Assembly: GCA_963727625.1 (NCBI GenBank)
Contig: CAVSHR010000002.1
Coordinates: 672,001 to 736,000 of the forward strand
DNA: 64,000 nt
DNA from: an uncultured delta proteobacterium
Lineage (GTDB): Bacteria; Desulfobacterota; Binatia; UBA9968
Reading direction: 5' to 3'
Shown: positions 1,003 through 32,954 of the stretch, in pieces
Numbering within the stretch: the stretch's first letter is position 1
How the letters are laid out: every line of letters starts with the position of its first letter
Translations under genes and position numbers: made by a program
Notes under the pieces: generated by a model
The model's database searches: none
What the model saw: the letters and a program-made list of their open reading frames with translations, nothing else
Told to the model about the DNA's origin: nothing

Positions 1003-1775
1003 CAACGGATTGTTTTGACGACGGACGCGGGGTCGGGGCTCTCGACGACGAACATGCGCTCGCCGGCGTCTTCCAACGCCGTGCTCAGCAGCGCTGCTTT
1101 GAATTGCACGTCGCGGCCGCCGCGCGCCAAACTCGACTGAGACTTGCGCTCGAACCAACCGGGTTTCATCAGCCAGAGCGCCGGGGCGCCCAGTCGAAGC
1201 GAATCGCGCTTCTGCGCGTATTCGAGATTCAGGCGGCATAGGTGCGAATCGAGCTCATAGAGGAGCTGTTCGAGGCACTCGTGGGCCGGACTAGCGCCGT
1301 CAAACTCCACCGAGAAGACATAGCGCGACTGGTTGACATCGGCGCAGGCGCGGAAATGGCGCACCGGCAGGCTGGTTGCGGCTTGGGCGTGGGCGAGCGC
1401 CTGGATCACCTGATCGACATGCAGTTTCTCGCCGGTGACGCTGGTGACGTCGCGACCCTTGCGAATGAATTCAAGCAGCGGGGTGCGGTTGTAAAAACCG
1501 GGGATGCGAACCACGTCGTTGATATCGTAGCGGTAGAGGCCGCCGGGCGTCGTGAGAACGATATAGTATTCCTTGCCCACTTCCAGTTCAGCACAGCCAA
1601 GCGGCGTGGCGGTGGCGTTGCCGAATTCGCTCTCAGGAATGAATTCGTAAAAATTGGCGCCGATATCCCGTATTCCCGCCGAGCCCGAATCGGCAATCGG
1701 TAGGGTGATCTGCGCCTCGCTGGCCATGTAGCCCAGGTCGCGCACCGGCGTTGCTTCATCGAACCAAAGACTCAA
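1002..1775 (-). pseudogene. GH3 auxin-responsive promoter family (acyl-adenylate ligase), C-terminal half only
   Basis: GYMASE, FYEFIP, YYIVLTTPGGLYRYDINDVV and GEKL motifs. Only 257 aa versus about 500-550 aa typical; TTG start with no evident RBS. Confidence 0.75.
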
Positions 1776-2036: not shown

Positions 2037-5000
2037 TTACGCGACCGGTGTTTGTGAAAATTCCCGGGCCATCGCTTTGATTTTCTTCAGATCCACTTTG
2101 CCAGAACCGAGTAGCGGCAGCGAGTCGATAAAGTGAAGATTCTCCCGTTTGGGAATCCACAGCTTCGGCAGCTCCGAGTGATTCAACTTGTCCCACAGTT
2201 CTTCTCTGGTGATGCCGTTTTGAGCGTAGAAGGCGATCAGTTTCTCGCCCCGCTGTGCGTCGGGTAGCGCGACGACGACGGAAGCAGCGCTGCCCAGCGT
2301 TGCATTCATGATCTCTTCGATCTTCATATGCGGCACCATCTCGCCGCCGATCTTGCTGAAGCGCGAGATCCGGTCGGTGATCTGGATGAAGCCATCGTCG
2401 TCGACGGCGGCAATATCCCCGGTAACATACCAGCCGCGGCGCAAGGCTTGATCGGTGAGCCCCGGCTGGCCGAGATAACCGAGCATCAAATTGGGCCCCT
2501 TGACGAGCAAGAGGCCGGGTTCGCCGGGAGGAAGCGGCCCGTCGCGGTCCGGGTCGACGACCTTGACTGCGACACCGGGAAGCGGCCGCCCCACGGTACC
2601 GAGCTTGTGGCCGAGCTGTTTCTCCTTGCCGTCGAATACATCGGGGATATTGACGGCCACGACCGGCGCCAGCTCGGTGCAGCCGTAGCCCTCCAAAATC
2701 GTCAAGCCGAATTTTTCCTCATAGCTCTTGCCGGTCTGTTCGCGTAATTTCTCGGCGCCGGCGATCAAGTAGCGCAGTGAAGCGAACTCTTCTTTGGTAC
2801 AACGGCGCAAATACCCAGCGAAAAAAGTCGGCGTGCTGATCAGCAGCGTGGCGCGGTATTTTTGCACGGTTTCGCCGATGGTTTTGGCATCGGTGGGATT
2901 GGGGTGATAGACCGCGCCGAAACGGGCGAGCAGCGGCAGCCAGAGCGTGCCGGTGAAGCCGAAGGAGTGAAACAGCGGCAAAACCCCCATGATTCGGTCA
3001 TTCGGCATGAACTCAATCACTTGGCGGATCCCTTCGATGTTCGAAATGATGTTCCAATGCGACAGCATGACGCCCTTCGGCTCTCCTGTACTGCCGCTGG
3101 AAAAAATCACCGTCGCGAGGTCGTTGGGCCGTTGGTTCTTGAGATAGCGACGGTTGAGCAGGGACGACGGCACGAGAGCTGCTTTTAGCGCCGCTGCGAA
3201 TCTCTGCGCCGGTGTAAATGTCTTTCGCAGCTCTTCGAGATAGACCATGCCGTCGAGTTTCTCTAAACCGGCTTTGCTTAGAAATAACCGCGAAGTCACG
3301 ATGGTGATGATGCCGCACTGTGCCAATGCGGAGGCCATGGCTTCGCGTCCACTGGTGAAGTTCAAATTCACCGGGACTTTTCCGGCGAGAAGAATCGCGA
3401 TGTTGGCCAGCGAGCCGCCCACCGAAGCGGGCAGCAGCACACCCACCATCGACTCCGCGGCGCAGTATTTTTTCAACCAGTTCGAAAGCAGCAGGCTGCC
3501 GATCAATATTTTGCCGTAGGTGAGCTCCGTGCCTGTGGTGTCGGCCATGCAGAAGGAGGACCAGTGCCGCTTGGCGGTGGCGATAAATTTCGTGTGCAGC
3601 AGCTCGGCGGCGCTGTGGCGATACTCAAATGCCTTGCTCTCGAGCTCGAGCACGGCGTTGCGCACCTCATGGACCGTCGCGTTGGACGGCAGCGGCGGAC
3701 CGAAGGAGACCGTGACCGGATGGGGAAATTGTTTAGGCCATTTCCAAAAGAATCGGCCTTGATTGAAGCTGAAGATACTGCCCCAGAGTTGATCCAGGTG
3801 AACCGGTATGATTGGCACGCCGGTCCCCTCGACAATTTTTTCGAAGCCGCGCTTGAAGGGCAAGATGTGACCGGTGCGGGTGATCGCGCCTTCGGCGAAG
3901 ACACAGACGACATGGCCCTTGTCGAGCTCATTGCGCGCGTGCTTGAGCGACTGCACGATGTCGCGGCGGTTGCTTGCCGAAACCGGAATCGAGCGCATCA
4001 GGCGGAAGAACCAGTTCAATCCTTTGAGATCGTAGTAGTCACGGTGCAGCATGAAGCGGACAAATCGCGGCAAGGCGCCGCCGACCATGAAGGCGTCGAC
4101 GAAGGAAACGTGGTTCGACACCAGCAGCGCCGGGCCCTTCAGCGGCAGATTCTCCGCGCCGACGATCTTGATTCGGTACGCCGTGTGGGTGAATGCCCAG
4201 AGGATGAAACGCACGAAGTAGTCCGGCAGAAAATAAAGAATCACCGCAGTGCCGCCCAGGGTGAGCAGACCGGTCAGCAAAATGATGACATCCGGCGTGA
4301 GTTGGAGCGCGGATTTGAGAAACCAGTGAATCCCGGCGGCAAGAAAAATTCCCAGGGTATTCATGAAATTATTGGTCGCGAGCAACTGTCCCTTTTCCTC
4401 GCGTCCGGCCTTTTGTTGGAGAAAGGCATTGAGCGGAACCGCGAACAGGCCGGCAGAGAAACCCAGGCCCATCAGCGCGACGGCGGTGTGCGGATAGGAG
4501 GGCGTGGCCAGCGCGACCCAGCCCAAACACACGCCCATGGCCACCGAACCCAGGGGTACCAGACCCAGCTCTATGTGATCGCCGGAGAGTCGTCCCGCGG
4601 CCAAGCTCCCCAGGCCGATGCCGATCGCCAGGAATGTCGCGAGCAGTCCGATGTAAAACTCGTCGAGCCGGAGTAGCTCCCTGCCAAAGAACAACATGTT
4701 GATTTGCACCAGGGCGCCCAGAAACCAAAAGTAAGAAATGCCGATCACCGTGAGCCAGAGCGGCCGTTCGGCACGCAAGCGGCGCAGACCGTCGACGATT
4801 TCTCCGAAGGGATTGAGCCGAAAGAGCTTGGTTGCCCCTGACGGCCGCACCCGAACGATTTTAAGACTCGTCAATAAGCCAAGCACAGCGATGGCGATCA
4901 TCAACAGGCCGATCAGCGGCAGGTTGCGTTTCCACAACGCGAAGATCGCGCCGCCAGCGGAGGTGCCGAGGACGATCGCCATAAAGGTGCTCATCTCCAG

Positions 5001-6737: not shown

Positions 6738-7700
6738 ATGGGAATAAGTCGCCGGAGTTTCTTGGCTAAAGTCAGCGTTGGCATTGCGGCTCTACCGTTT
6801 GCGGAAGGTTTTAGCTGGGCGCAAACCAAGAGCAAGCTTGGCTACATGAAGATCGTCGATTGTTCGCCGATGTTCATGGCGATGGAGAAGGGTTTTTTTA
6901 AGGCCGAAGGATTGGAATTGAAAACCGTGCCGATGGCTGGCGGCGCGGTGATCGTGCAGGGTGTGACATCGGGCGATTTGCAGTTTGGCTGGACCAACGT
7001 GATTTCCCTTTACCAGGCTTACGTCGAAGGTTTTGATTTTAAACTGGTCGCGGGCGGCGCGACCAACGTGCGCGGCACCAATGATACCCACGCCATCGAA
7101 GTCTTGAAAGATTCTCCCATCAAACGAGCCAAAGACCTCGAAGGCAAAACCGTCGCGGTCAACACTTTGAACAACATAGTTCACTTGATGGCGATGGCCT
7201 GGGTGGACAAGAACGGCGGCAGCTCGGCCAAAGTCAAATTCATCGAGCTGCCGTTTCCCCGGATGGAAGCCGCTCTCGTGGCCGGCAAGGTGGATGCGAT
7301 CAGCGTGCACGAGCCCTTCGCCGCGGCGGCGGCGCGCAAAGCGGAGATTCGGGTGCTGGCGAATCCATGGGGCGATGTCGCGCCAAAGTTTTTGATTGCC
7401 AGTTGGTTCGCATCGGAAAAATGGGTACAGAAGAACAGAAAAACCGCCGAAGCCTTCGTGCGTGCGCTCAATCGCGGCATTGACGCAATTCATGCCGACA
7501 AAGAAGGCGCGCGCGCTGCCATGATTAAGTGGGCGGGGCTCAAACCCGATATGGTGGGAAAAATCGGCCTGCCGCTGTTCGACAAGACCCTGTCGGAAAA
7601 GGATCTCCAAGCCACCATTGACCTCACGTTCAAATACAAATTAATTTCGCGCAAGATCAAAGCGCGCGAAGTCATCAGCGGCATCGCGACTAAGGCTTAA
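6738..7700 (+). CDS. NitT/TauT/SsuA-family ABC substrate-binding protein, Tat signal
   Basis: SRRSFL twin-arginine motif; EKGFFKAEGL, DLEGKTVAV and GKVDA; GGAGG RBS. Confidence 0.88.
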   Translation: MGISRRSFLAKVSVGIAALPFAEGFSWAQTKSKLGYMKIVDCSPMFMAMEKGFFKAEGLELKTVPMAGGAVIVQGVTSGDLQFGWTNVISLYQAYVEGFDFKLVAGGATNVRGTNDTHAIEVLKDSPIKRAKDLEGKTVAVNTLNNIVHLMAMAWVDKNGGSSAKVKFIELPFPRMEAALVAGKVDAISVHEPFAAAAARKAEIRVLANPWGDVAPKFLIASWFASEKWVQKNRKTAEAFVRALNRGIDAIHADKEGARAAMIKWAGLKPDMVGKIGLPLFDKTLSEKDLQATIDLTFKYKLISRKIKAREVISGIATKA

Positions 7701-22831: not shown

Positions 22832-23077
22832 CTATTCGTCCGGTTCGCCGAAATAATCTCTCACGATTCTTTCCTTGATATATTCCAAAGCGCCCAAATC
22901 CTGAATGATATCGCCGCCAGTGTCATAGAAAAAAATATCACCTTTATGATTGCGGCCGATAGCCACGAGCCATTCCAGTTCGTCGCGGTCTTCCAACAGA
23001 TAATTAATCGCTTGATTGGCGCCTTTGCTGGCGATGATGGTTACTTTGGGTTTGGCGTTTTTCTTCGCTTGCGACAT
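22832..23077 (-). CDS. Hypothetical protein (81 aa)
   Basis: AGGAGG RBS before ATG 23077; protein-like sequence MSQAKKNAKPKVTII... Confidence 0.7.
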   Translation of the reverse strand: MSQAKKNAKPKVTIIASKGANQAINYLLEDRDELEWLVAIGRNHKGDIFFYDTGGDIIQDLGALEYIKERIVRDYFGEPDE

Positions 23078-23173
23078 GGACCAGCCTCCTGAGTGCAAGC
23101 TGAGTCTATAACAGAAGTAGAGGCGCTACAACTTAAGGGAATTATTGGCTCGCAGCCGGCGCCGCGAAGCGGA

Positions 23174-29246: not shown

Positions 29247-30323
29247 ATGCTGATTCTATCCAACGAGGACATCGAGAAAATTTTACCCGTCGGCACCTGC
29301 CTGGACGTGCTCGAGGAAGCATATCGCGATCTCGGCAACGGGAGGGCGGCGACGGTGCCGCGCTACGATGTTTTCAGCCCGACCAAGCCCAACCAATTCT
29401 ACGAATACAAAACGATGAGCGGCGTGTTGCCTGGTCGCAAGATCGCGGCGCTGCGGCTCAACTCCAGCGTGGTCACGTGGTACGAGAAGGCCGGCGGTGT
29501 GCGCAAAGACAAGTTGCCCGTCGCCGGCGGCGATAAATACGTCGGGCTGGTGATGCTCTTTAGCACCGAAACCGGCGAGCCCCTGGCGATCTTTCCCGAC
29601 GGCTACGTACAGAAACTGCGTGTGGCCGGGGCCAGCGCCATTGCGGCGCGTTACCTGGCGCGCAAGGATTCCAAAGTCATGGCGTTGCTCGGCGCCGGTT
29701 GGCAAGCGAGCGCACATCTGGTGACGATGTCGATGATTCGCGACCTGAAGCAGGTGAAGGTCTTCAGCCTGACACTGGAGTCGCGCCGACGTTTCGTCGA
29801 AGAGTGGACGGGAAAGGTTGCGGCGCAGTTGATCGAGACCGACAGCGCGGCCGAGGCGATGGACGGCGCCGATATGGTAATCGCCACGACCAACTCGATC
29901 TCGCCGCTGTTTCCCGGCGAGTCTTTGCGGCCGGGGATGCATGTGTCGTGCGTCAAGCCCTGCGAGTTCGATGCCGCAACGTACAAGCGCTCCGAGCCGT
30001 TGATTATCCACTGGCGTGAGGCGAAGCCCTTTCAAATCGCCATCGGCTTTGACCGCCAATCGATCCCCGACGTCGCCGAGGGCTGGCAGCACCCGCTCAC
30101 GCGCGAAGACTGCGCTATTTGGGATTTCCCGACTCTTTCGGAATTGGTCAACGGCCGGCACCCCGGTCGCGCCAGAGACGATGCGATAAGCTGTTTTTGC
30201 AACAATGTTGGCCTTGGCTTGCAGTTCGCGGCAGTCGGCAGCGAGGTCTTGGCGCGGGCCCGAGAAACGCGCGTCGGACGGGAAATTCCGACGGATTGGT
30301 TCTTAGAAGAGGTGCATCCCTAG
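29247..30323 (+). CDS. Ornithine cyclodeaminase / mu-crystallin family protein (second paralogue)
   Basis: TGEPLAI, LLGAGWQA, GLQFAAVG and GREIPTDWF. Confidence 0.88.
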   Translation: MLILSNEDIEKILPVGTCLDVLEEAYRDLGNGRAATVPRYDVFSPTKPNQFYEYKTMSGVLPGRKIAALRLNSSVVTWYEKAGGVRKDKLPVAGGDKYVGLVMLFSTETGEPLAIFPDGYVQKLRVAGASAIAARYLARKDSKVMALLGAGWQASAHLVTMSMIRDLKQVKVFSLTLESRRRFVEEWTGKVAAQLIETDSAAEAMDGADMVIATTNSISPLFPGESLRPGMHVSCVKPCEFDAATYKRSEPLIIHWREAKPFQIAIGFDRQSIPDVAEGWQHPLTREDCAIWDFPTLSELVNGRHPGRARDDAISCFCNNVGLGLQFAAVGSEVLARARETRVGREIPTDWFLEEVHP

Positions 30324-30329
30324 AATGAT

Positions 30330-30378
30330 GTTTCGAGTTTCCGGTCTCGGGTTTCGAGTTAAAAACATGAAATCCAAA
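30330..30378. repeat. 7-nt GTTTCGA-like tandem array
   Basis: GTTTCGA GTTTCCG GTCTCGG GTTTCGA GTT; same unit type as 12355-12425. Confidence 0.6.
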
Positions 30379-30661
30379 GGTTCGCTTCCGATGGGTTTGC
30401 TTGCGTTTGAGCCTGACATGCAGCGCGCGCAGACCAAACTCAAAGTCGCTTACCCGGCCACAAGCACGGGGTAGACGTCGAGGTCATTTACACCGCCGGC
30501 AGCTCGCGCCTCATCCAAGCCATGTTGGCTAAAAACCTGCCGATCTCCGAGATTGCGATTTCCGCGGTTATTCAAGCAATCTCGCCGGCCAATTTTATCG
30601 ACGTCGGTTATTAGAAAGTGCTGGAGCGAGTGGGTTCACCAAGAAGCGCTATGGTGAGTAG
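30367..30661 (+). pseudogene. Internally deleted NitT/TauT-type substrate-binding protein remnant
   Basis: Pieces in different frames: AQTKLKVAYPATS / KHGVDVEVIYTAGSSRLIQAMLA...PANFIDVGY* / SGFTKKRYGE*. The N-terminal piece parallels the SBP at 6738 (AQTKSKLGY...KAEGLELK). Confidence 0.6.
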
Positions 30662-30763
30662 TGATCCGCACTTCAAGTTGCAGGACGACGCGTTGAGCAA
30701 ATTATTTTGGGAAGACGAACCCACTCGCGCGAAAAAAAATGCAATCAAAAATTCACATTTTTA

Positions 30764-30792
30764 TTGACAGATAAAAACCACTTTCGTACACT
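30764..30792 (+). promoter_or_regulatory. Strong sigma70 promoter
   Basis: TTGACA (30764-30769), 17-bp spacer, TACACT (30787-30792); A/T-rich UP-like tract upstream. Confidence 0.8.
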
Positions 30793-30824
30793 GCTCATCA
30801 GCAGGGAAAGGAGGTGGTCCAGAC

Positions 30825-30866
30825 ATGATTGATAAAAGTACTGTCTGCGAGGTGGCTGAGACTTAG
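30825..30866 (+). CDS. 13-codon small ORF MIDKSTVCEVAET (or part of an sRNA)
   Basis: Preceded by GAAAGGAGGTGGTCCAG and a promoter; followed by a hairpin. Confidence 0.45.
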   Translation: MIDKSTVCEVAET

Positions 30867-30887
30867 GCTCTAGGCGGAATCTTTGAC

Positions 30888-30918
30888 GGGGATTCAGGCC
30901 TGGAGCCTGGGAATCCCC
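30888..30918. terminator. GC-rich hairpin between the mini-unit and the convergent HEAT gene
   Basis: GGGGATTC-AGGC-CTGGA-GCCT-GG-GAATCCCC; no long U tract. Confidence 0.5.
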
Positions 30919-30942
30919 CTCAGTCCACCTAGTGGGTCCGCT

Positions 30943-31683
30943 TCAACGGTCGCTTGCGCTGCCGCTTGAAGCGGACCTTCTTTTTTCCAGCAATTCGAGT
31001 GCGGTTAGGGCCGCTTTTCTCGACCCCCGATCTTCGCTCTCGCTGTTCTTTTTTAACGCAGCCAGAAATTCTGCTGTTGGCTGTCCCAGATTCGCCAGCG
31101 CAATTGCGGCTGTGTGACGCACCTTGGCTTCCGCATCGTCACCGTAAATTCGTAACAAAACATTTTTTCCGGCGGCGTCAAGATCTGGTCGTAGCCTCAA
31201 ACAAATGGCGGCGGCGACCCTGACGGTGACATCGGGATCACCCAGGGCCCCGAGCAACGCTGACCGGCTCGCCGGATCGGTCAAGGCAAGATCGCGAATG
31301 CAGTAAAGCGCCATGCGTTTCTGATGCGCGGTGCCGTCGGCGCTGAGTTGCATCAGTCGCGGGACGATAGCGCCGTCAATTTTTGCAATGCGAATCAGCA
31401 GGAGGGCGATCGCCCAGCGAATGTCTGCCTCGCCGTGATCCAGGGCGTCGAGCAGCCCTTGCAGCGCGGCGCGGGAAGGTTCCGGCAGATGACCCAGAAT
31501 GTAGGCTACTGGCCAGTAATTTTTATGACCGCTCGCGGTCAGTCGGTGCCCTAGGATTTCGCGCAGGCGAGGAGTCTCGTCGGCGAGGGCGATCAGCTTG
31601 TCGACGGCCGCGCGAATCGCCGGCTTGTTATGTTGATCCAGGTCGGCAATGAGCGCGTCAATTTGGCGATCGTCCAGTTCCAT
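30943..31683 (-). CDS. HEAT-repeat protein
   Basis: Repeated ALDH..ADIRWAIA, ALGDPDVTVRVAAA and KVRHTAAIALANLG helical repeats. Confidence 0.8.
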   Translation of the reverse strand: MELDDRQIDALIADLDQHNKPAIRAAVDKLIALADETPRLREILGHRLTASGHKNYWPVAYILGHLPEPSRAALQGLLDALDHGEADIRWAIALLLIRIAKIDGAIVPRLMQLSADGTAHQKRMALYCIRDLALTDPASRSALLGALGDPDVTVRVAAAICLRLRPDLDAAGKNVLLRIYGDDAEAKVRHTAAIALANLGQPTAEFLAALKKNSESEDRGSRKAALTALELLEKRRSASSGSASDR

Positions 31684-31754
31684 GATGAGTCCGCCTGCGC
31701 TCAACCGCAGATCATCGACTTAAATTGTTCTGTGGTCTTCTCGCCCCGGCGCCC

Positions 31755-32954
31755 TTAGATTTCCAGAAACTGCGGACAGTCCGTAAGATTTCGATTGGCT
31801 TTGGTCGTGACGAGAACGACGTCTTCCAAGCGCACGCCACCGACGCCGAGATAGTAAAGCCCGGGTTCCACGGTAACGACATGACCGGTGTGCAGGGTCG
31901 CGTCGATCGGTGCGATGCGCGGCGGTTCGTGGATATCCAACCCGAGACCGTGGCCCGTGCCGTGAAAAAATCCCTGCATTCGCCCGTTAATTTTACCGGT
32001 GTGAAACCCGCGCGCCTCGAACAGATCGAGAATTTTTTGGTGCACTTCCCTGCCGTTGACGCCGTCGTGGATATTGTCATAGCCGATCTTCTGCCCGGTC
32101 TGAACGGTGGCGTAAATTTCTTTGAGCTTGTCCGAGGCGCGGCCGCGCACTACCGTACGGCTCAAATCGCCGAAGTAACCGTTTTGTTGCGAGCGCGGAA
32201 AGATGTCGAAAATGATCGAGGTGTTTGCCTTGATCGGCCCGCTGCCCTCGTGATGGGGATCGACGCATTGATTTCCCGAAGAGATAATCGTGTGGCTCGG
32301 CAGCCAGCCCTGCGCCATGATCGTAGTATTCACCGCGGTCTTGAGCATCTCGGAAGTAAGCCGGGTGCCGTTCAGATAAAGATAGCCGTCGCGCTTGAAC
32401 TTGGTGTGTTTGAGCATGCGGATGCCCGCATCGAGCCCGAGCCGGGCGACGCGTAGGGAGTCGGTGATGTGTTTGACTTCGAGGCGATATTTGGTTTCGC
32501 GTTCGGCCCAAAACGGATCGCGTTTGATCTGCACGCTGTACCCTTTGGTCCGAAGCTGGTCGGAGAGCAGCGCGGGAAAATTCGCCGGCACGATGAGCGA
32601 GCGGACGCCGCGTTCGCGGAACAATAGATCGAGAATGTCGATGATACCGATGGGCGTTTTGCCGAGCTTACGCAATTTGCGCTGGTAGAGCGACAGCGAA
32701 AGAACGCGATCCACCTGGGCCTGCTTCTTGGCGCGGTCGATTTCCAAGTCGCTCAGCACGGCGAACTTGACGTTTCTATGTTGAAAAAAAATAAACGGAT
32801 CCGGAACAAAGAAGCCGGTGGCGTAAAGTATATTGGAATCGCCCTCACTGGCGGCGACGATGAGCAGCGCTTGATCCTTGCGCGGGTTTGCAGATTTGCC
32901 GCTGCGGACTTTGGTTCTCGTGTTAGCTGGGGGATTGCGTTTTGAATCAAACAT
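31755..32954 (-). CDS. Xaa-Pro peptidase (M24 family)
   Basis: PHH, DIFP..GYFGDLSRT, HGTGHGLGLDIHE, TVEPGLY and GVRLED. Confidence 0.92.
   Translation of the reverse strand: MFDSKRNPPANTRTKVRSGKSANPRKDQALLIVAASEGDSNILYATGFFVPDPFIFFQHRNVKFAVLSDLEIDRAKKQAQVDRVLSLSLYQRKLRKLGKTPIGIIDILDLLFRERGVRSLIVPANFPALLSDQLRTKGYSVQIKRDPFWAERETKYRLEVKHITDSLRVARLGLDAGIRMLKHTKFKRDGYLYLNGTRLTSEMLKTAVNTTIMAQGWLPSHTIISSGNQCVDPHHEGSGPIKANTSIIFDIFPRSQQNGYFGDLSRTVVRGRASDKLKEIYATVQTGQKIGYDNIHDGVNGREVHQKILDLFEARGFHTGKINGRMQGFFHGTGHGLGLDIHEPPRIAPIDATLHTGHVVTVEPGLYYLGVGGVRLEDVVLVTTKANRNLTDCPQFLEI

Follow-up and report, generated by a model that had tools for sequence, protein, structure and literature searches.

A 64-kb stretch of the genome of an uncultured member of the Binatia (contig CAVSHR010000002.1), here called the window, carries a small RNA gene on its forward strand. 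The gene consists of a sigma-70-type promoter, an extended Shine-Dalgarno (SD) region complementary to the 3′ end of 16S ribosomal RNA (rRNA), an open reading frame (ORF) of 13 codons, a structured RNA domain and an intrinsic terminator (Table 1). The downstream genes, encoding a HEAT-repeat protein (30943-31704) and a Peptidase_M24 protein (31755-32954), are both convergent on the reverse strand, and the small RNA unit therefore stands alone. The encoded RNA is a new, divergent member of a known, functionally unsolved RNA class.

Pairing with the 16S rRNA tail and extent of the transcript

The single 16S gene detected in this genome (L001) ends ...GCGGCTGGATCACCTCCTTTCT. Over the 17 nt of GAAAGGAGGTGGTCCAG (30806-30822), 16 Watson-Crick pairs and one G:U pair form with this end, as the original prediction, made on a typical 16S sequence, had proposed. 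When G30805, which makes a second G:U, is counted in, the pairing extends to 18 contiguous base pairs. The predicted duplex (-33.7 kcal/mol, compared to -12.2 and -13.6 kcal/mol for SDs of 6 and 8 nt) is the strongest in the whole window, in agreement with the original description of a complement much longer than a normal SD. In the 6.6 Mb of the genome there are four copies of the 12-nt core AAGGAGGTGRTC, against one of the reversed control; these four are this locus, the antisense of the 16S gene and two sites within coding frames. The 16S complement is far beyond chance. A ribosomal DNA fragment was considered and rejected because the sequence on either side of the 17-mer is not that of the 16S antisense strand.

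The promoter matches 10 of the 12 consensus positions and is the sole promoter-like site between 30000 and 31800 (1 found versus 0.6 expected). It is preceded by an A/T-rich tract at about 30735-30763. Both hexamers and a motif in the spacer before the -10 box are kept in relatives of family f1 (TTGACAG ... C.C.TT.CGTAAACT), while the sequence farther upstream is not. The predicted RNA of about 188 nt folds with -97.7 kcal/mol (z = -6.15 versus shuffles). In the stem of its terminator 80% of the cells are paired, and 7 of the 12 pairs show changes in both strands. These figures for the stem, like those given below for P0, P2, the apical hairpin and the bulge A′, was obtained from 28 sequences of families f1 and f2 aligned with MAFFT. 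No ORF of at least 100 amino acids follows the mini-ORF on the forward strand, the next long ORFs being on the reverse strand. The promoter, the 13-codon frame with its internal GAGGTGG and the absence of a long gene downstream had all been read correctly in the original prediction. The stand-alone transcript that it proposed is likewise sustained by the promoter and terminator, by conservation and by contigs from RNA libraries, but its length of about 120 nt and its 3′ end at 30918 have to be revised, as the unit runs through the terminator to about position 30986.

Table 1. Coordinates of the small RNA unit in the window.
Feature	Position	Strand	Description
Sigma-70-type promoter	30764-30792	+	-35 TTGACA 30764-30769, 17-nt spacer, -10 TACACT 30787-30792
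Predicted transcript, ~188 nt	30799-30986	+	Start inferred ~7 nt past the -10 box; end in the U tract
Extended SD region	30805-30822	+	GGAAAGGAGGTGGTCCAG; 18 unbroken base pairs, including 2 G:U, with the 3′ tail of the host 16S rRNA
P0, weak hairpin	30820-30847	+	CAGAC 30820-30824 with GUCUG 30843-30847; would enclose the start codon
Mini-ORF, 13 codons	30825-30866	+	ATG 30825-30827, peptide MIDKSTVCEVAET, TAG 30864-30866
Internal SD-like GAGGTGG	30849-30855	+	Codons E-V-A; 8 nt upstream of the stop codon
P1, long-range helix	30851-30929	+	GGUGGCUGAG 30851-30860 with CUCAG-U-CCACC 30919-30929
P2, helix	30862-30911	+	30862-30875 with 30898-30911; stop codon 30864-30866 inside the 5′ strand
Apical hairpin A:B	30877-30895	+	GAAUCUUU 30877-30884 with GGGGAUUC 30888-30895
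A′, AAUCCCC	30912-30918	+	3′-side bulge between P2 and P1; consensus AAUYCC across phyla
Intrinsic terminator	30935-30986	+	Stem 30935-30946 with 30966-30977, then UUCUUUUUU; U tract to 30986

In four metatranscriptome studies of soil, ice and rhizosphere, Logan contigs with 90-99% identity to the unit were found. The four longest, three of them at 95-99% identity and one at 90-95%, cover positions 30810-30992 (a contig of 183 nt), 30808-30992, 30806-31004 and 30763-30987. No contig cover was found in the flanks at 30600-30760 and 31020-31200, which is not evidence of absence. These contigs are confined to the unit and indicate, weakly but consistently, that close relatives make a discrete and abundant small RNA.

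Three neighbouring features were also observed. At 30943-30986 the terminator shares its sequence with the final codons of the HEAT-repeat ORF that converges on it (30943-31704, reverse strand), and it may stop transcription in both directions. Between the end of the upstream OCD_Mu_crystall gene at 30323 and the promoter lie about 440 nt (30324-30760) with only ORFs of less than 50 amino acids, which could be a gene remnant or an untranslated spacer. Finally, the second strongest predicted duplex with the 16S tail in the window (-30.2 kcal/mol) was found at 23060-23094 on the reverse strand, where the ATG of a gene comes immediately after a long, interrupted complement of the 16S, CAGGAGGCTGGTCC.

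Conserved reading frame and RNA structure

The element is single-copy in the genome. By BLAST, 56 of the 61 genomes in its order (G000 among them) carry a copy, as do 36 of the 37 high-quality ones (31/36 in family f1, 5/5 in f2 and 19/19 in f3), so that the conservation in relatives that the original prediction made a test is observed. These counts include two unpublished genomes (G005 and G035, loci L004 and L030), two rows on which no conclusion rests alone. The best-conserved stretch, 30799-30871, comprises the SD and the ORF. GAAAGGAGGTGGT is invariant in all 56 complete order-level copies, while a sister family, reading GGTCAAAA, has not kept the CAG with which the complement ends. The host 16S 3′ end itself, on which the original prediction depended, was examined in L001 as described above and carries the extended complementarity.

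An ORF of 11-14 codons is present in all 56 complete copies (start ATG in 54 and GTG in 2, stop TAG in all), and its length differs only by whole codons, as in MIDKCTVCEVAET, MNDDKCTVCEVAET, MIDYLCTDCEVAET, MSDICSCEVTET and MSDICCEVTET. The codons TGY GAG GTG are invariant in 56/56 of these copies. Within GAG GTG NCT GAG the third positions never vary in the order, variation being seen only at TGY and ACY. That the codons for E, V and E never take a synonymous form points to a constraint at the level of the RNA.

To follow the frame farther, we used a pattern made from the invariant parts of the element, scanned over one genome per species. It returned at least 120 stretches, and 80 loci among the matches listed were analysed. 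The SD-to-Cys-codon distance varies across phyla (18, 22, 24-27, 29-31, 34 and 42 nt) and includes all three residues modulo 3. Nevertheless, a start codon located 1-12 nt past the SD and open to the Cys codon is found in its frame in 77 of the 80 matches listed, compared to 24/80 and 2/80 in the other two frames. Three loci among the 80 lack such a start; two of them fall outside the family according to the covariance model R1 described below, and the third (L112) has an in-frame ATT. The stop codon lies exactly six codons from the Cys codon, that is three codons after C-E-V, in 78 of the 80 matches listed. Over all 136 sequences the stops are TAG (123), TGA (7) and TAA (4), and none was reached in two.

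The peptide is far less constant than its frame. Its length ranges from 7 to 19 residues, and its last three residues read AET, TET, PET, AAR, AAS, VAS, VAP, AEA, SVR, TIR or ARR depending on the lineage, changing together with compensatory changes in the pairing strand of helix P1. Many peptides have a first Cys two or three residues before it, in a CxxC-like spacing, and M-I-D is a recurrent element, but the window peptide has a Ser where most relatives carry this first Cys. Peptides of Actinomycetota have W, R or G two residues ahead of the Cys, from a codon NGG in which only GG is fixed and after which AC follows; this reads as an RNA-level GGAC that would be able to pair with the GUCC of the SD extension. 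Since the frame is kept across phyla and yet the last codons co-vary with the helix, translation itself, and not the peptide, seems to be under selection. The comparison of covariation with codon conservation proposed in the original prediction thus had a divided outcome: frame, start and stop are kept, whereas the peptide is not and its C-terminal codons co-vary with P1. The accompanying suggestion of an mRNA for an abundant micropeptide is not supported in that form, given freely changing, compensated C-terminal residues and fixed third positions.

A subfamily was noted (L183-L185, L059, L072, L077, L081, L087, L110, L114, L117 and L129) in which the peptides end in CEVV or CEVA followed by S or P. 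Its members carry a third SD-like motif, GGUGA, just before the Cys codon (GGUGAUCUGUGAGGUGG), and a tandem CACCACC in the 3′ strand of P1.

P1 pairs GGUG and about 6 nt of the 3′ half of the ORF with a strand that ends in CACC just before the terminator, so that an internal SD-like sequence faces an anti-SD-like CCACC. The helix reads GGUGGCUGAG / CUCAGUCCACC in the window, GGUGGCUGC / GCAGCCACC in Mycobacterium, GGUGUCCGUC / GACGGACACC in Nocardiopsis, GGUGACCAUC / GGUGGUCACC in Gordonia and GGUGGUGGCC / GGCACCACC in the Methylomirabilota type. In a model-guided alignment of 95 distinct sequences, which was fitted to the model and so leans towards it, 81.3% of the P1 cells pair, compared to 71.6% after shuffling. 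The covariation score is 0.284, compared to 0.158 in shuffles and 0.04-0.07 when the partners are slid; none of 500 shuffles reached the observed value of either measure. Cells changed on both sides number 106 against 37 in shuffles, and 6 of the 10 P1 pairs are double-changed. Two other approaches were less informative. A search for P1 partners allowing G:U was too permissive, as shuffles often reached 7-10 pairs, and the model-based alignment was used instead; RNAalifold on the ragged MAFFT alignment gave no useful structure.

P2, whose 5′ strand buries the stop codon, is 91% paired in the 28 relatives and has three pairs changed on both sides. For the apical hairpin A:B the paired share is 89%, and 2 of the 7 pairs counted have changed in both strands. 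The bulge A′ can alternatively pair with B (30888-30894) as a pseudoknot, which is 93.8% paired with 3 of 7 pairs changed on both sides. The co-variation of A, B and A′ as a trio suggests a two-state element, A:B or B:A′, on evidence that is modest and limited to the lineage. Outside Binatia and Mycobacterium no clear partner of the AAUYCC bulge emerged: the longest complement had a mean of 4.9 nt compared to 3.9 nt in shuffles (88 sequences), and none was seen in several actinobacterial genera. Whether the A or G at the variable position of the SD (GGUGRUCC) changes in step with the base adjoining CACC was checked by eye, with inconsistent results. The strong hairpin of the original prediction represents one part of a multi-helix domain.

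Relation to Ms_IGR-5, CC2171 and the rre RNAs

At Rfam gathering thresholds no match was obtained in the whole window. Under relaxed settings, however, the scan suggested in the original prediction returned sub-threshold, full-length matches to two families, Ms_IGR-5 (RF02471; model positions 1-184, 29.7 bits, E 7e-5 in 701 nt) and CC2171 (RF01867). In a genome-wide search with RF02471 this locus is the top match (E 1.6e-4). The RF02471 scores form a continuum from Mycobacterium (175.8) through Streptomyces (73), a Methylomirabilis record (67.7), a relative of the same class (33.0) and Terriglobales (32.7) to the window (29.7). The intermediate records bridge Actinobacteria and this lineage; the Methylomirabilis one lies above the RF02471 cut-off though it is not actinobacterial. 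Nitrospiria, Leptospira and Rokubacteria records gave no RF02471 score at E <= 0.05.

The window RNA shares with Ms_IGR-5 the order of its parts: a leader, AAGGAGGUGGUCC, a small ORF (sORF) that ends in C-E-V plus three codons, P1, an AAUUCC bulge and a terminator. The extended SD, the phase-kept sORF, a P1 closed by GGUG/CACC, the AAUYCC bulge and the terminator are all found in both. The two differ in the leader (CAGCAG in the window, not ACACA) and in the additional P2/A:B arm of the window. Moreover, the first stem of the Rfam model, in which the 3′ part of the SD pairs with codons after GAGGUG, is not formed in the window, and the window lies outside Actinobacteria. Judged by sequence and architecture, the window RNA is a divergent relative of Ms_IGR-5. 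According to PMC4974804, homologues of Ms_IGR-5 carry ribosome footprints in both M. abscessus and M. smegmatis.

Two covariance models of our own were also used. R1, consisting of P1 and P1b and built from 49 sequences, matched 98 of 100 loci (20 from the 57 order-level loci plus all 80 listed), the exceptions being L063 and L116. R2, built from 29 sequences outside the order that had been collected with the window-derived pattern, has one match in the whole 6.6-Mb genome, this locus, with 45.9 bits and an E value of 2.5e-8 by rough calibration. A weak partial second match of R2 in the window (7546-7659, reverse strand; 12 bits, E 0.07) is probably due to chance.

By record titles, on which all taxon counts rest and which may be wrong for metagenome-assembled genomes (MAGs), 50 of the 80 matches listed belong to Actinomycetota taxa (Mycobacterium, Mycolicibacterium, Streptomyces, Kitasatospora, Gordonia, Brachybacterium, Saccharopolyspora and others). 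The other 30 are titled Binatia (5), Deltaproteobacteria (4), Syntrophobacter or Syntrophobacterales (2), Thermodesulfobacteriota (1), Rokubacteria or Methylomirabilota (4), Terriglobales, Terriglobia or Solibacteraceae (5), Nitrospiria (1), Leptospira (1), Gammaproteobacteria (2), Ignavibacteriales (1), Opitutaceae (1) or simply 'bacterium' (3). Among the matches listed, the copies most like that of the window carry Binatia, Deltaproteobacteria or Syntrophobacter titles, in line with the groups guessed at in the original prediction, and the C-E-V family includes records titled Binatia, Methylomirabilota/Rokubacteria, Acidobacteriota, Nitrospiria and Leptospira. Within the phylum of the window R1 matched G000 and three of the four other genomes of the same class. 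No neighbouring genes were found conserved across phyla, synteny being seen only within lineages. In Mycobacterium an Aminotran_4 gene lies upstream with GCV_T and THAP4_heme-bd genes nearby, whereas the window has OCD_Mu_crystall, HEAT and Peptidase_M24 genes.

Two individual copies deserve mention. In L070, a Terriglobales record, the element (4478-4668) is located directly before a transfer RNA (tRNA) gene (4832-4903, forward strand), and a transfer-messenger RNA (tmRNA) gene (1024-1385, reverse strand) lies about 3 kb away; rreB, described below, likewise adjoins a tRNA gene according to PMC5711450. The copy in L125, titled Gammaproteobacteria, resembles those of Mycobacterium in sequence and peptide (LVDLWTCEVAAS), and this MAG may be mislabelled or contaminated.

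The closest design with bench data is that of the rre RNAs of alpha-proteobacteria. As described by Hahn et al. (RNA Biol 2017, PMC5711450), rreB of Bradyrhizobium is a 165-nt small mRNA in which a 17-nt perfect complement of the 16S 3′ end is combined with a 14-codon sORF starting with GTG. The same report states that rreB RNA co-sediments with 30S subunits, for which the three 5′-most bases of the 17-nt region are needed, and so shows strong 30S binding by such a region at the bench. A long 16S complement is also the hallmark of the window RNA. It further describes rreB as weakly translated and much rarer than ribosomes, with a half-life that rises from 10 to 37 min upon removal of the start codon and with unchanged growth upon 20-fold overproduction. 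The RreB and RreR peptides are each conserved within their own clade and share no similarity; the synthetic peptides were unstructured, and constructs expected to raise RreB were without phenotype (PMC5711450). In this paper, rre analogues are reported only in four alpha-proteobacterial orders, their function 'remains elusive', and neither Rfam, CC2171 nor Actinobacteria is named. We found no paper linking rre, Ms_IGR-5 and CC2171. Only three later papers citing the rre paper were found, all from work of the same laboratory, and a search for rreB and Bradyrhizobium gave nothing further.

The window RNA and the rre RNAs are both stand-alone RNAs of about 165-190 nt with their own RpoD-type promoter and terminator, both of them predicted in the case of the window. 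In both, a 16S complement of 16-17 nt directly precedes an sORF of 13-18 codons, followed by structured downstream RNA, and the genomic context is not kept between lineages. In the window the contiguous complement to the genome's own 16S 3′ end exceeds 16 nt and the sORF begins 2 nt downstream. In contrast, the GTG of rre RNAs shares the last base of the complement; the window has an ATG 2 nt past it, and one or two G:U pairs. An rre-like GTG overlap is found in three other orders of the class of the window (L183-L185, ...GGAGGTGATCCAGTG...) and in several other phyla. The C-E-V-x-x-x end of the ORF, the GGUGG/CCACC helix and the AAUYCC bulge are features of the window, none of which has been described for rre.

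CC2171 is a small RNA (sRNA) of Caulobacter. Its Rfam consensus starts with GAAAGGAGGUGAUCCAG followed by GUG, and a long-range helix encloses several hairpins before a terminator, but it has neither the GAGGUG/CACC helix nor the C-E-V frame. Because the consensus begins with the 17-mer and then GUG, CC2171 is probably the Caulobacter representative of the rre analogues. Expression of CC2171 was confirmed in Methylorubrum, as stated in bioRxiv 10.1101/2022.01.24.477521. In control genomes, sub-threshold matches were seen to RF01867 (B. subtilis, Synechococcus, Thermus, Deinococcus and Thermotoga) and to RF02471 (Caulobacter and Thermus). These matches represent either more RNAs with such long SDs or models catching strong SDs beside terminators.

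Proposed mode of action and alternatives

We favour, with moderate confidence, the interpretation that the locus is a housekeeping-type gene for a mini-mRNA with an exceptionally long SD, which combines the design of rreB/rreR with the sequence family of Ms_IGR-5. A strong promoter without an evident operator would produce the RNA of about 188 nt, whose single-stranded 5′ end would dock on the 16S 3′ tail of the 30S subunit through 14-18 bp, far more tightly than an ordinary mRNA. As the full duplex leaves only 2 nt before the AUG, its downstream part would have to melt before the start codon can be placed, which would make initiation slow and rare and let the RNA dwell on the 30S subunit, as was shown for rreB. 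The initiating ribosome would read 13 codons, unzip P1 and P2 and terminate at the UAG buried in P2; at this point the internal GAGGUGG would sit 8 nt behind the stop codon, an SD-like spacing. Translation would transiently free the CCACC strand and the AAUCCCC bulge, may flip A:B to the B:A′ pseudoknot and, by analogy with rreB, probably times the decay of the RNA. Such a structural switch and any physiological output are what we infer from this geometry. The most likely outputs would be the sensing or buffering of idle 30S subunits; guarding of the 16S tail, or unmasking of a C-rich seed for target mRNAs, are further candidate roles.

Several observations weigh against this interpretation. 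The likeness to rre is one of design, and 30S binding, weak translation and start-codon-dependent turnover are bench results for rreB only. A titration role is unproven, given that overproduction of rreB had no effect on growth. The Rfam scores of the window are below the cut-offs, with 29.7 bits against a gathering threshold of 45 for RF02471 and 22.6 bits against 75 for the full-length match to CC2171 (RF01867). The pattern used across phyla forces 12 nt of the SD and TGYGAGGTG, which are therefore conserved in those matches by construction. The distribution is patchy: R1, under stricter filters, matched none of 146 genomes from other classes of the same phylum. The relatives are not independent, so that shuffle controls overstate significance, and the switch between A:B and B:A′ rests on two or three covarying pairs each. 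P0 lacks covariation support, since 80% of its cells are paired but the column pair 26/53 is unpaired in 16 of the 28 sequences. Finally, contigs at a depth of 3-7 cannot give ends, strand or abundance, DNA carry-over is possible, and one of the four contigs (X15) also spans the promoter.

The 13-residue peptide could itself be the effector, the RNA being merely its mRNA with an unusually strong ribosome-binding site. Conservation of frame, start and stop, the C-E-V invariant in 56/56 order-level copies, the recurrent CxxC-like spacing and M-I-D, and the clade-wise conservation of RreB and RreR (PMC5711450) would all fit. This is nevertheless unlikely, because non-conservative substitutions in the last three residues are matched by compensatory ones in the RNA and no synonymous codons are used for E, V and E in the order. 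The Actinomycetota W/R/G residue with only GG fixed, the Ser of the window in place of the first Cys and the variable length of 7-19 residues point the same way, as do the unstructured synthetic RreB and RreR peptides and the RreB-raising constructs without phenotype (PMC5711450). If, conversely, the ORF were irrelevant, the RNA would be a non-coding decoy, whose sole action on idle 30S subunits would be to occupy their 16S 3′ tail, like a sponge, or to shield it from 3′-exonucleases, like a cap. The 18-bp duplex of -33.7 kcal/mol, the 2 nt that separate it from the AUG and the position of the barely translated rreB on 30S (PMC5711450) are compatible with this. However, a start that shifts to keep the frame (77/80 versus 24/80 and 2/80 of those listed) and a fixed stop are unexpected for an untranslated RNA, and rreB is much rarer than ribosomes and without growth effect at 20-fold overproduction (PMC5711450). 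We consider a decoy slightly less probable than a peptide effector. The 30S trap of the original prediction, in its simple form, is weakened by the same overproduction result.

We give as little weight as to a decoy to the idea of a trans-acting sRNA, in which C-rich seeds (CCACC, AAUCCCC) masked in P1 or the pseudoknot would be exposed by translation of the mini-ORF and pair with G-rich ribosome-binding sites. Dual-function sRNAs are well established as a class. Across phyla no motifs of the 3′ half are better conserved than AAUYCC and CACC, and by geometry a ribosome that opens P1 and P2 would free both. Yet CACC is fully explained by the pairing in P1, the bulge of Binatia has an internal covarying partner, and neither synteny nor a regulon gave a hint of targets, which were not sought. 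A leader-peptide transcription attenuator would likewise show a short ORF with alternative pairings followed by a terminator, and its Cys codons could sense the supply of cysteine. This explanation is close to refuted, and we rejected it because no co-directional gene lies downstream, the next genes (30943-31704 and 31755-32954, reverse strand) being convergent. In addition, the neighbours differ between phyla, relatives were detected as discrete sRNAs, and no antiterminator pairing with the terminator was seen.

The mini-mRNA interpretation that we favour recalls 6S RNA. This abundant small RNA imitates the nucleic acid that RNA polymerase naturally binds, parks on the enzyme and is released or destroyed when the polymerase uses it as a template (product RNA, or pRNA, synthesis). 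The likeness would be one of working principle only, translation of the window RNA being the parallel of pRNA synthesis; the target of 6S RNA is RNA polymerase, not the ribosome, and the two RNAs have no relation in sequence or structure. It is conceivable, though we consider it improbable, that rre, CC2171, Ms_IGR-5 and the C-E-V family belong together in a single, ancient class of riboregulators directed at the ribosome, to which they would be what 6S RNA is to the polymerase. Such RNAs would park on the 16S tail of idle or new 30S subunits and either guard this tail or report the pool of free 30S. One 'test' round of translation would clear them by opening an internal helix that mimics SD:anti-SD.

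Small mRNAs with a 17-nt SD have been described once, in alpha-proteobacteria, and Ms_IGR-5 and CC2171 are Rfam sRNAs of unknown function. The same design is now seen in an uncultured soil lineage, and it suggests an anatomy for the whole group: a frame kept for the sake of translating, an SD/anti-SD-like helix opened by the ribosome, a stop codon buried in a helix and an AAUYCC bulge. If it is true that these RNAs report or buffer free 30S subunits, they would constitute a general, overlooked layer of translational control.

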